From NCBI GenBank assembly GCA_965197645.1, contig OZ240219.1, positions 608,001-672,000 on the forward strand: a stretch of 64,000 nt of DNA, written 5' to 3'. Below the pieces are notes generated by a model. That model was given only the letters and a program-made list of their open reading frames with translations, was not told the origin of the DNA and ran no database searches. Made by a program: the position numbers and the translations under genes. Positions 52,310 to 53,538 of this stretch are shown here, piece by piece. Each line of letters begins with the position of its first letter. Position 1 is the first letter of the stretch. Source of the stretch: Dehalococcoidia bacterium. Lineage in GTDB: Bacteria > Chloroflexota > Dehalococcoidia > Plut-88900.

Positions 52310-52615
52310 GCAATGACGAAGCCGTCGTTGCGAGCGACGGAGGAGGTAGTCCTGAGGGGGGTCGAAGGGAGCGAAGCAATCTGGAGCGGTGGAGTATACA
52401 TCCCTGCCAGTCAACGGTCAGACCTGGCTAGATTGCCACGCCCCGACTTTGTCGGGTCTCGCAATGACGGAGGTGCGGATTCAGACGTTGCCCTCTCTTC
52501 TATCATGTTATGGGTGCAGGGCCCGCCCTGCCTTTAGCAGGGGGTTGGGAGACGTGCCCCCAAAGTATTCGAACCTCCCAGGGCGGGTGGGAGGGAAGAA
52601 CCACCTGGGGTGGGG
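52310..52615. repeat. Mosaic of repeats: truncated A, inverted A-like arm with nested CCTGAG..GTCGAAGG module, A (52412-52468), B tail (52537-52615)
   Basis: Matches the copies at 14046-14265 and 25446-25735. Confidence 0.85.
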
Positions 52616-52641
52616 AGCTTGACGTCCCAATTGCTCCCGAC

Positions 52642-52673
52642 AAAAGAAGGCGGCCCGACAAGTCGGGCCGCCT
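52642..52673 (-). terminator. Intrinsic terminator after the zinc-ribbon gene
   Basis: AGGCGGCCCGAC-tt-GTCGGGCCGCCT followed by TCTTTT on the minus strand. Confidence 0.8.
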
Positions 52674-52699
52674 CTTAACGTTTGCTTGTTAGCTAGACC

Positions 52700-52930
52700 T
52701 CAGCGACACCCACATCCAGTGGGACCACAACCCCCTCAGGTGGGGCCCGACGAGGGAGCGGGCATCGGGTCTCCGGCCCCAACCGTCGAGAAGGAGGCGA
52801 AGGTGGATACGGTCCTCGAAGCGCCGTTGTGGCACGATGGGCAGGAGACCGCTTGGTCAGACTTGCTCATCGGCATCAACAGCTCGAACTCGGACTCACA
52901 CGTGGTGCACTTGTACTCGTAAAGGGGCAT
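52700..52930 (-). CDS. FmdB-family zinc-ribbon protein, probable selenoprotein (76 aa if UGA 52736-52738 is read as Sec)
   Basis: MPLYEYKC..C...FE...CP.C; in-frame TGA followed by GGCGPTGCGCR*; GGAGG RBS. Confidence 0.8.
52703..52728 (-). promoter_or_regulatory. Candidate bacterial SECIS hairpin
   Basis: CCCAC-UGGAU-GUGGG stem starting 12 nt after the UGA, extendable by GUGGU/GUCGC. Confidence 0.6.
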
Positions 52931-52956
52931 GGTTTTCCTCCTGCGTAGTCGGTGAC

Positions 52957-52986
52957 ATCCTAGTGGTGTTTCCCGCCCGATGTCAA
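52957..52986 (-). promoter_or_regulatory. sigma70 promoter of the zinc-ribbon gene
   Basis: TTGACA-18-TAGGAT. Confidence 0.6.
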
Positions 52987-53085
52987 GGCTTGGCCTGGAT
53001 ATGCAGTGTATTGTTGTCTTGCTCAGCCGGTTACCGGTGGGGTATCTTAGGAAACAGCCGCTACCCAATCAGGAGGAGTCCCGTC

Positions 53086-53538
53086 ATGCAGAAAAGCAAG
53101 ACCGAACCCTGGATGCCCGCCGACGAGTACGGTCGCTCGCTGCCGGTCTTTACCATCAATCTCCTGGTCACCGACGTCGCCCGGGAGGTGGAGTTCTACG
53201 AGGCGGTGCTGATGGCCAAGTGCCGCTATCAGGACGTCGACTTTGCGGCTGTGAACGTGCAAGGCATCGAGTTCATGCTCCACGCAGACCACACCTACGA
53301 CGTGCACCCCTGGCTGGAACCCTTCAAGGCCGGCGATCTCCGGGGCCTGGGCGCCGAGCTACGCATCCTGGGTATAGACCCCGACGAGGTGGAGAAGGCG
53401 GCGCGAGGGTTTGGTGCGGACATTATTCAGGAGGCCAGCGACAAGCCCCACGGCTGGCGGGAGGTCATGGTCGCCGACCCCGAGGGCTACGTCTGGGCGG
53501 TAGGGGTAAAGTTCTACGGGAACGGCGAGTCCGAGTAG
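53086..53538 (+). CDS. VOC/glyoxalase family protein
   Basis: L.V.DV....FY..VL, DKPHG.RE....DP.GY.W. Confidence 0.85.
   Translation: MQKSKTEPWMPADEYGRSLPVFTINLLVTDVAREVEFYEAVLMAKCRYQDVDFAAVNVQGIEFMLHADHTYDVHPWLEPFKAGDLRGLGAELRILGIDPDEVEKAARGFGADIIQEASDKPHGWREVMVADPEGYVWAVGVKFYGNGESE

Follow-up and report, generated by a model that had tools for sequence, protein, structure and literature searches.

A predicted selenocysteine in the C-terminal tail of an FmdB-family zinc-ribbon protein from a Dehalococcoidia bacterium

A small FmdB-family zinc-ribbon gene lies on the minus strand of a 64,000-nucleotide (nt) stretch of the genome of a Dehalococcoidia bacterium (Chloroflexota; GenBank assembly GCA_965197645.1, contig OZ240219.1, positions 608,001 to 672,000), which we refer to as the window and whose numbering is used throughout unless a genome position is given. 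Comparison of this gene with those of related genomes indicates that its UGA codon 65 is very probably recoded as selenocysteine (Sec, U) by the SelB-dependent route, guided by a hairpin at 52728-52703, and that translation would continue for 11 more codons to a stop at 52702-52700. Actual incorporation of selenium, the binding of SelB to the hairpin, and the job of the resulting tail are what we infer from these comparisons. What is new here is a predicted Sec at a new site in the FmdB family, together with a correction of the annotation: public gene calls stop at residue 64 and drop the whole Cys/Sec cluster, and they do likewise in four related genomes. Because recoding follows the usual mechanism and the family has figured among selenoprotein families since 2008, the finding adds to known biology and leaves it otherwise unchanged.

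The in-frame UGA and its cysteine counterparts

The open reading frame (ORF) opens with an ATG at 52930-52928, and direct reading of the sequence places a TGA at codon 65 (52738-52736); a list of ORFs made with translation table 11 closes the gene there, at 52736. The same frame runs on through 11 codons, GGCGPTGCGCR, to a second TGA at codon 77 (52702-52700), and with the first TGA read as U the translation is MPLYEYKCTTCESEFELLMPMSKSDQAVSCPSCHNGASRTVSTFASFSTVGAGDPMPAPSSGPT-U-GGCGPTGCGCR-stop. An earlier note on this DNA, made from its letters alone, had proposed this read-through (...SSGPT-U-GGC-GPTG-CGC-R, with a UxxC motif) as far as the second TGA and ahead of a terminator, and both the frame and the motif are confirmed by re-reading and translation. 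The terminator begins 26 nt after the second TGA and does not follow the first; together with a promoter-like site and a ribosome-binding site of its own, it makes the gene a compact single-gene unit.

The note's assignment of the protein to the FmdB-type zinc ribbons also holds. Matches to Pfam PF09723 (Zn_ribbon_8; 52.7 bits against a cut-off of 34.4) and NCBIfam TIGR02605 (57.5 bits against 31.3) both exceed their thresholds. Members of the family carry two CxxC motifs near the initiator methionine, some 17-18 residues apart, and these are found here as C8-x2-C11 and C30-x2-C33, with both pairs intact as cysteines; C8, C11 and C30 are invariant in an alignment of 25 orthologue sequences (A1). 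The ribbon is followed by a linker rich in Gly, Pro and Ser and then by the tail cluster, U65-x2-C68-x4-C73-x-C75.

The genome of the window (G000; one contig of 3.21 Mb) contains the complete machinery that the earlier note had proposed looking for. It encodes selA (547.7 bits), selB (346.8 bits), selD (379.7 bits) and a tRNA-Sec (66.4 bits), the last identified by ARAGORN as tRNA-SeC with anticodon TCA. The selD gene itself has one in-frame TGA, in the motif AHCAGU-ASK, and five of the 11 matches to the AhpC-TSA (peroxiredoxin-like, or Prx-like) domain have one in-frame TGA inside the domain, in contexts that include FTYGUTRE and GSWUDGC. Because these five genes carry both an in-frame TGA and a hairpin after it, the genome is selenoprotein-rich. 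None of its five molybdopterin-oxidoreductase (PF00384) matches has an internal stop. A codon-usage screen of the genome for selenoproteins yielded 12,082 candidates and was dropped, the FmdB tail scoring -0.69 and selD falling outside the filters. At the selD locus (L009, G000:C1 941838-941876) we noted a second in-frame TGA 20 codons upstream of the Sec codon, which probably precedes the real start (MVTEEE...).

We searched 61 genomes in six frames, these being G000 and 60 relatives. A full-length orthologue is present in all 12 genomes of family f1, and codon 65 is TGA in five of them (G000, G001, G002, G004 and G011, representing four genera) and a Cys codon, TGC or TGT, in the other seven. 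The Cys/TGA pairing that the earlier note had suggested looking for at residue 65 is thus found at exactly that residue. The tails of the Sec forms read GPT-U-GGCGPTGCGCR in G000, GPT-U-GGCGPTGCGCN in G001, GAG-U-HSCSPHGCACSA in G002, GVG-U-GSCSTTGCGCAS in G011 and GVG-U-GPCSTTGCGCAS in G004, and those of the seven g4 genomes with Cys follow the pattern GVG-C-GGC[GSP]P[AT]GCGCAH. Across the 25 aligned orthologues the column of residue 65 holds U in five and Cys in 20; with U read as C, columns 65, 68 and 73 are invariant, and each sequence has a fourth Cys, at residue 75 or 76. Placement of the TGA in an invariant Cys column exceeds what is expected by chance.

The orthologues are also positional, since 25 of the 30 loci L021-L050, that of G000 (L021) included, have a convergent Lit gene (PF07314) directly after the FmdB gene; MazG lies beyond Lit in 15 of these loci, again including L021. 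All 12 genomes of family f1 keep selA and selB above the cut-offs, so the Cys forms are not explained by loss of the machinery. In a class-wide sample 174 of 401 genomes gave a match at E <= 1e-12 and, among the matches listed, a TGA inside the match was seen only in the same five f1 genomes; the tally includes one unpublished genome (G243, with no stop), which is used in no other claim here. A wide protein search returned four hits of 59-71 amino acids, all shorter than the query and none with a Cys-form tail. The nearest database protein (P0002) is 94% identical and 64 amino acids long, and from this length we take it to have been cut at TGA codon 65.

The hairpin and competing readings of the UGA

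A hairpin follows the UGA, with an upper stem of CCCAC (52723-52719) and GUGGG (52713-52709) closing the loop UGGAU (52718-52714). The stem starts 12 nt past the A of UGA, and a fold of 91 nt adds a 4-base-pair (bp) lower stem that pairs 52728-52725 with 52706-52703. For a bacterial selenocysteine insertion sequence (SECIS), bSECISearch-type criteria place the apical loop ~16-37 nt from the UGA, with a G early in the loop; the corresponding spacing in E. coli is 11 nt. A 5-bp stem is common to the five Sec forms; counted from the U of UGA, its 3' arm takes up nt 26-30 and the loop opens at nt 21-22: CCCAC-UGGAU-GUGGG in G000, CCCAC-CGGGU-GUGGG in G001, CGCAC-GGUU-GUGCG in G002, and ACCAC-UGGAU-GUGGU in both G011 and G004. 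Each loop contains GG and then U, with a G at its first or second position. The outer stem pair changes from C-G to A-U among the Sec forms, and the stem of G002 is rebuilt one base over by way of Thr to His and Gly to Ala substitutions. The hairpin is distinguished by this fixed register and by its GG-containing loop in all five Sec forms, and not by its stability. As in standard genes with a SECIS inside the ORF (E. coli fdhF, and selD and the Prx-like genes of this genome), it follows the UGA within ~20-30 nt, has a G in the loop, and accompanies a codon paired with Cys; unlike in those genes, the whole element is confined to the 26 nt that precede the real stop.

Several observations weigh against reading this element as a SECIS and the codon as Sec. 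The 91-nt fold has a z score of -0.81, with 36 of 200 shuffled sequences folding equally well, and the minimum free energies of 48-nt segments are no better than those of shuffles for G001 and G002 and only about one standard deviation better for G000. In the corresponding region Cys-form orthologues also fold stems, of 4-10 bp, because their Cys and Gly codons are GC-rich and repetitive; hairpin stability was accordingly rejected as a discriminator between Sec and Cys forms, the latter folding equally well. RNAalifold finds a single covarying pair, the C-G to A-U change, and this in two sequences that are almost identical; without gaps in the alignment, G002 breaks four of the five upper pairs, being counted as pair-breaking because its stem re-forms one base over. 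A search for related loci in metagenome and genome collections found no close relatives of the family (best identities 38-57%) and so provided no additional Sec-form hairpins for covariation analysis. The hairpins of selD and the Prx-like genes are longer, with 7-8 bp stems and loops of 3-4 nt (GUA, GUG and AGUU, at nt 21-31), in contrast to the 5-bp upper stem, 4-bp lower stem and 5-nt loop seen here, and an Rfam scan of 52400-53200 gave nine matches, all far below their gathering scores. An AlphaFold2 (AF2) model built from 25 orthologues (mean predicted local distance difference test score, pLDDT, 65.9) has block means of 74-82 over residues 1-40 and ~50 over the tail, and is therefore uninformative on the fold of the tail and the geometry of its Cys/Sec cluster. 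The one trace in an RNA library (run X7, below) is no proof of transcription. For the earlier note's claim of a SECIS-like CCCAC/GUGGG hairpin 12 nt past the UGA, the geometry is upheld in five of five Sec forms but statistical strength is lacking, and we take the hairpin to be consistently positioned and to agree with a SECIS, albeit no proof in itself.

Further evidence comes from the tail and from independent DNA. Between G000 and G001, five of the 11 codons past the TGA differ, four of the changes being synonymous (GGT/GGC, TGT/TGC, ACT/ACC and GGA/GGG) and one non-synonymous (CGC/AAT). From nt 145 to its end, the last third of the gene has a DNA identity of only 38-65% between genera, yet the frame, a tail of 11-12 codons and three Cys codons are retained in each of the five Sec forms. 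Public contigs were compared over 52560-53060. One from run X1, which may be the source sample, covers 52577-53060 with zero differences, and one from another sample (X3) is identical over 52686-52903. A contig from another study (X4) covers the full compared region of 501 nt and shows 29 differences and two gaps; none of these falls within 52703-52756, such that the Sec codon and the tail are intact, and a C to T change at 52701 (plus strand) turns the final TGA into TAA. Run X7, an RNA library, yielded one 216-nt contig over 52725-52938 that crosses the first TGA. A final stop that drifts between TGA and TAA beside a constant TGA is the pattern expected of a real stop and a Sec codon, respectively. 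The earlier note had counted an unconserved tail, and reads with TGC or TGT, among the signs against a Sec codon, the latter as marks of a sequencing error or a recent nonsense mutation; the tail is conserved in every Sec form, and the contigs of all four runs have TGA.

The simplest alternative is that TGA65 is a real stop, such that the protein has 64 residues and the Cys-rich tail is the dead remnant of a nonsense mutation. Gene finders do end the gene at 52736, the 94% identical P0002 has just this length, and the hairpin is not statistically exceptional. A dead remnant is, however, at odds with a TGA shared by five genomes of four genera that have kept the downstream frame and its three Cys codons, with the excess of synonymous over non-synonymous change beyond the TGA (four to one between G000 and G001), with the X4 relative, in which the second stop is altered to TAA and the first TGA and the tail are left alone, and with a terminator that comes only after the second stop. 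We consider a real stop at codon 65 very unlikely.

Alternatively, the UGA could be read through without Sec, by a near-cognate tRNA that inserts Trp, Cys or Arg, or the codon could have been reassigned. Low-level read-through of UGA does occur in bacteria, and the hairpin is unlike the stronger SECIS elements of the same genome. Against this, the genome keeps a full Sec system and uses it at the catalytic Cys of selD and the Prx-like genes, and it is Cys specifically that replaces the codon in orthologues, a hallmark of Sec. Reassignment is further contradicted by the gene's own terminator-proximal stop; since this is also UGA, UGA has not been reassigned. Read-through of this kind is highly improbable. 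The last alternative, a sequencing or assembly error that turned TGC or TGT into TGA, was considered as a single-base difference from Cys for which no support was found, and it is practically negligible given the TGA in X1 and X3 (two samples), X4 (another study), X7 (an RNA library) and four other genomes. The recoding of UGA65 as Sec that the earlier note had inferred is thus supported by the machinery, the Cys/TGA pairing, the conserved tail and the independent assemblies.

In mechanistic terms, SelB carrying Sec-tRNA(Sec) would be recruited by the small hairpin 12 nt downstream of the UGA, inside the last 11 codons. UGA65 would be decoded as Sec and translation would run on through GGCGPTGCGCR, to terminate at the second UGA, beyond which there is no comparable hairpin.

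Cysteine tails and predicted selenocysteine tails in the FmdB family

The FmdB family has been associated with Sec before. Zhang and Gladyshev (2008; PMC2398784) name a 'Putative regulatory protein, FmdB family' as one of their new selenoprotein families and give two Sec reads from Global Ocean Sampling (GOS) against 807 Cys homologues; supplementary file 2 places the Sec in the first ribbon CxxC, at residues 8 and/or 11. Two reviews (PMC9312934 and PMC13188914) place the family under TIGR02605 with the motif U/CxxU or UxxU and without an accession. Full-text literature searches on the FmdB family returned no paper with Sec in the C-terminal tail and no paper with a tested function; the 'FmdB' of PMC11227280 is a formylmethanofuran dehydrogenase and is unrelated. 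The statement in the earlier note that Sec forms of FmdB have been predicted is therefore correct for the family and not for this tail site, the published Sec being that of the N-terminal CxxC. The GOS proteins resemble the one reported here in belonging to TIGR02605 / COG2331, in their small size, in the start MP-x-Y-[DE]-Y, in TGA/Cys pairing, and in a predicted SECIS inside the ORF. They differ in having U at residues 8 and/or 11, both of which are Cys here, with Sec at the first position of the tail cluster instead, and in being known there from two single reads, whereas the tail form is found in a complete genome with its machinery and in five Sec-form genomes.

Sec also appears at other positions of the tail. 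We read the tails of 87 orthologues from the class (29 of the 30 loci L021-L050 and 58 of the 60 loci L219-L278, three being unparsed): five have TGA at the first Cys, all in family f1, two have TGA at the fourth Cys, and 80 have Cys only, with several spacings. The two with TGA at the fourth Cys come from two other families of the same class. The tail of G042 ends ...CATCGPGGCST-U-HV-stop (L036 ~840-880) and that of G369 ends ...CGSCASSSCST-U-GG-stop (L235 ~420-460), in both cases with TGA where relatives have the fourth Cys and with a 7-bp hairpin, loop GUC, that starts 24-26 nt after the UGA. Both genomes have selA, and G042 also has selB. Among distant FmdB genes of other phyla (L051-L210), 32 of 157 end in [FGS][TSGR]-TGA-[GA] with at most 12 further codons, in a sample of metagenomes and metagenome-assembled genomes that is biased by having been found via the peptide MPLYEYKC. 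Most of those 32 have a hairpin of 4 to 9 bp after the TGA, with loops such as GTC, GGTC and GTG. To judge from these sequences, a near-C-terminal Sec type of FmdB may be widespread.

Within g4, Sec and Cys tails behave as exchangeable blocks. On a tree of the adjacent Lit gene the Sec forms G004 and G011 are intermingled with the Cys forms G006 and G009, and the Sec label needs four changes, at least two of them forced by well-supported branches. The loci of these four genomes (L035 and L032, and L024 and L027, respectively) are 90-98% identical upstream of the gene, over its first 144 nt, and from the terminator on. Sec and Cys forms of g4 are 92-96% identical over the first 144 nt and 63% over the last ~90 nt. 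A block of ~115 nt, from codon 49 to ~25 nt past the stop, is 57-68% identical between Sec and Cys forms and 100% identical between G006 and G009. Because the Sec and Cys blocks differ at many sites, the TGA and its hairpin have been inherited as one block. Repeated point mutation, as read from the changes on the Lit tree, was set aside, the 3' part of the gene being mosaic, and recombination or an old pair of alleles would fit the g4 blocks better than point mutation. The best match to the g4 Sec block among the other sampled tails is 59% (G002).

A broader proposal is possible, perhaps a little short of probable, and we put it forward tentatively: the Cys-rich tail would be the working part of FmdB proteins, Sec would have been recruited to it repeatedly (at the first Cys; at the fourth Cys in G042 and G369; and near the C-terminus, as [TS]-U-[GA], in other phyla), and Sec/Cys cassettes of ~115 nt would be swapped by recombination between close species. 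If this is true, FmdB would be among the most widespread and least annotated of bacterial selenoprotein families, and its Sec and Cys alleles would form a natural pair in which to study the retention of Sec.

As to the function of the tail, which the earlier note had put down as a redox or metal site, we favour with middling confidence a reactive selenenylsulfide centre. U65 and C68 would cycle via a selenenylsulfide, and C73 and C75 would resolve it or gate it with a metal. This is favoured because the UxxC found here and the CxxU of the two other families are classic redox motifs, and because the linker is Gly-rich and modelled as disordered. Comparable arrangements are the C-terminal redox arm of thioredoxin reductase (GCUG) and the CxxCxGxG zinc knuckles of the DnaJ type, the former sharing a Sec/Cys pair on a flexible Gly-rich C-terminus and the latter close CxxC pairs on one metal; the likeness is one of analogy alone, the tail being modelled by AF2 at low confidence.

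The main competitor, which we hold to be a real though lesser possibility, is that the tail is a structural or metal-trafficking site with four ligands for Zn, Fe or a soft metal, in which Se replaces S as a ligand. The invariant residues 65, 68 and 73 and the fourth Cys at 75 or 76 form a C-x2-C-x4-C-x(1-2)-C pattern typical of a metal knuckle, and the presence of Sec as first ligand in family f1 and as fourth in G042 and G369 is consistent with four ligands of equal standing. A 2026 review lists a predicted UxxU metal-binding selenoprotein. UxxC and CxxU are, on the other hand, the usual redox motifs, as argued for the FmdB family in PMC2398784, and no metal-handling gene is found among the neighbours (Lit, MazG, a 150-amino-acid ORF and a 2-oxoacid dehydrogenase operon). 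Sec is, moreover, costly, and as a rule it is retained where the chemistry calls for a nucleophile. Functions of the tail other than these two are unlikely. The gene context is of no help with the function.

FmdB-family proteins are very common, and Sec in the tail points to the tail as a reactive site, since Sec is usually kept only where chemistry happens. A gene that is otherwise 92-96% identical and ends in either a Sec or a Cys tail, in genomes that all have Sec machinery, constitutes a natural experiment on the costs and benefits of Sec.

Features and neighbours of the gene

Coordinates of the features are collected in Table 1. Within a 1-kb region we found two promoter-like sites, compared with 0.1 expected from shuffled sequences, by consensus match only.

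Table 1. Features of the FmdB-family gene in the window, and the Prx-like genes with in-frame TGA elsewhere in the genome
Feature	Position	Strand	Basis or remarks
Promoter-like site, TTGACA-18 nt-TAGGAT	52957..52986	-	~27 nt upstream of the ATG; 10 of 12 consensus matches
Ribosome-binding site, GGAGG	52937..52941	-	6 nt before the ATG; direct reading
Full coding sequence, FmdB-family zinc-ribbon selenoprotein (predicted), 76 residues + stop, UGA65 as Sec	52700..52930	-	Translation; Pfam/NCBIfam matches; full-length orthologues
N-terminal zinc-ribbon domain, residues 1-45	52796..52930	-	Zn_ribbon_8 over 1-39, TIGR02605 over 1-45
UGA codon 65, read as Sec (predicted)	52736..52738	-	Aligned to a Cys column; unchanged in contigs X1, X3, X4 and X7
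Tail coding region, GGCGPTGCGCR; with U65 = U-x2-C-x4-C-x-C	52703..52735	-	Translation and orthologue codons
SECIS-like hairpin	52703..52728	-	RNA folds; same register in all five Sec forms
True stop codon, UGA	52700..52702	-	Orthologues end here or one residue on, with TAG or TAA
Intrinsic terminator, 12-bp stem (9 GC pairs), 4-nt loop, T tract	52638..52674	-	Sequence scan
Five TGA-bearing AhpC-TSA/Prx-like genes	G000:C1 1308912-1309280; 422868-423242; 2313118-2313504; 742063-742431; 2802513-2802866		Each followed by a hairpin

The 150-amino-acid ORF occupies 53086-53538 (+) of the window, between the E2 gene and the FmdB gene, and matches no Pfam family at 1e-5. A counterpart of 64-70% identity adjoins the FmdB gene in ten of the 11 other genomes of family f1. 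On the other side of the gene, just past the terminator, 52576-52616 is a dispersed repeat of ~35-40 nt with 25 further blastn-short matches in the genome; many unrelated contigs stack there, to a depth of up to 125 as against 15 on the flanks.

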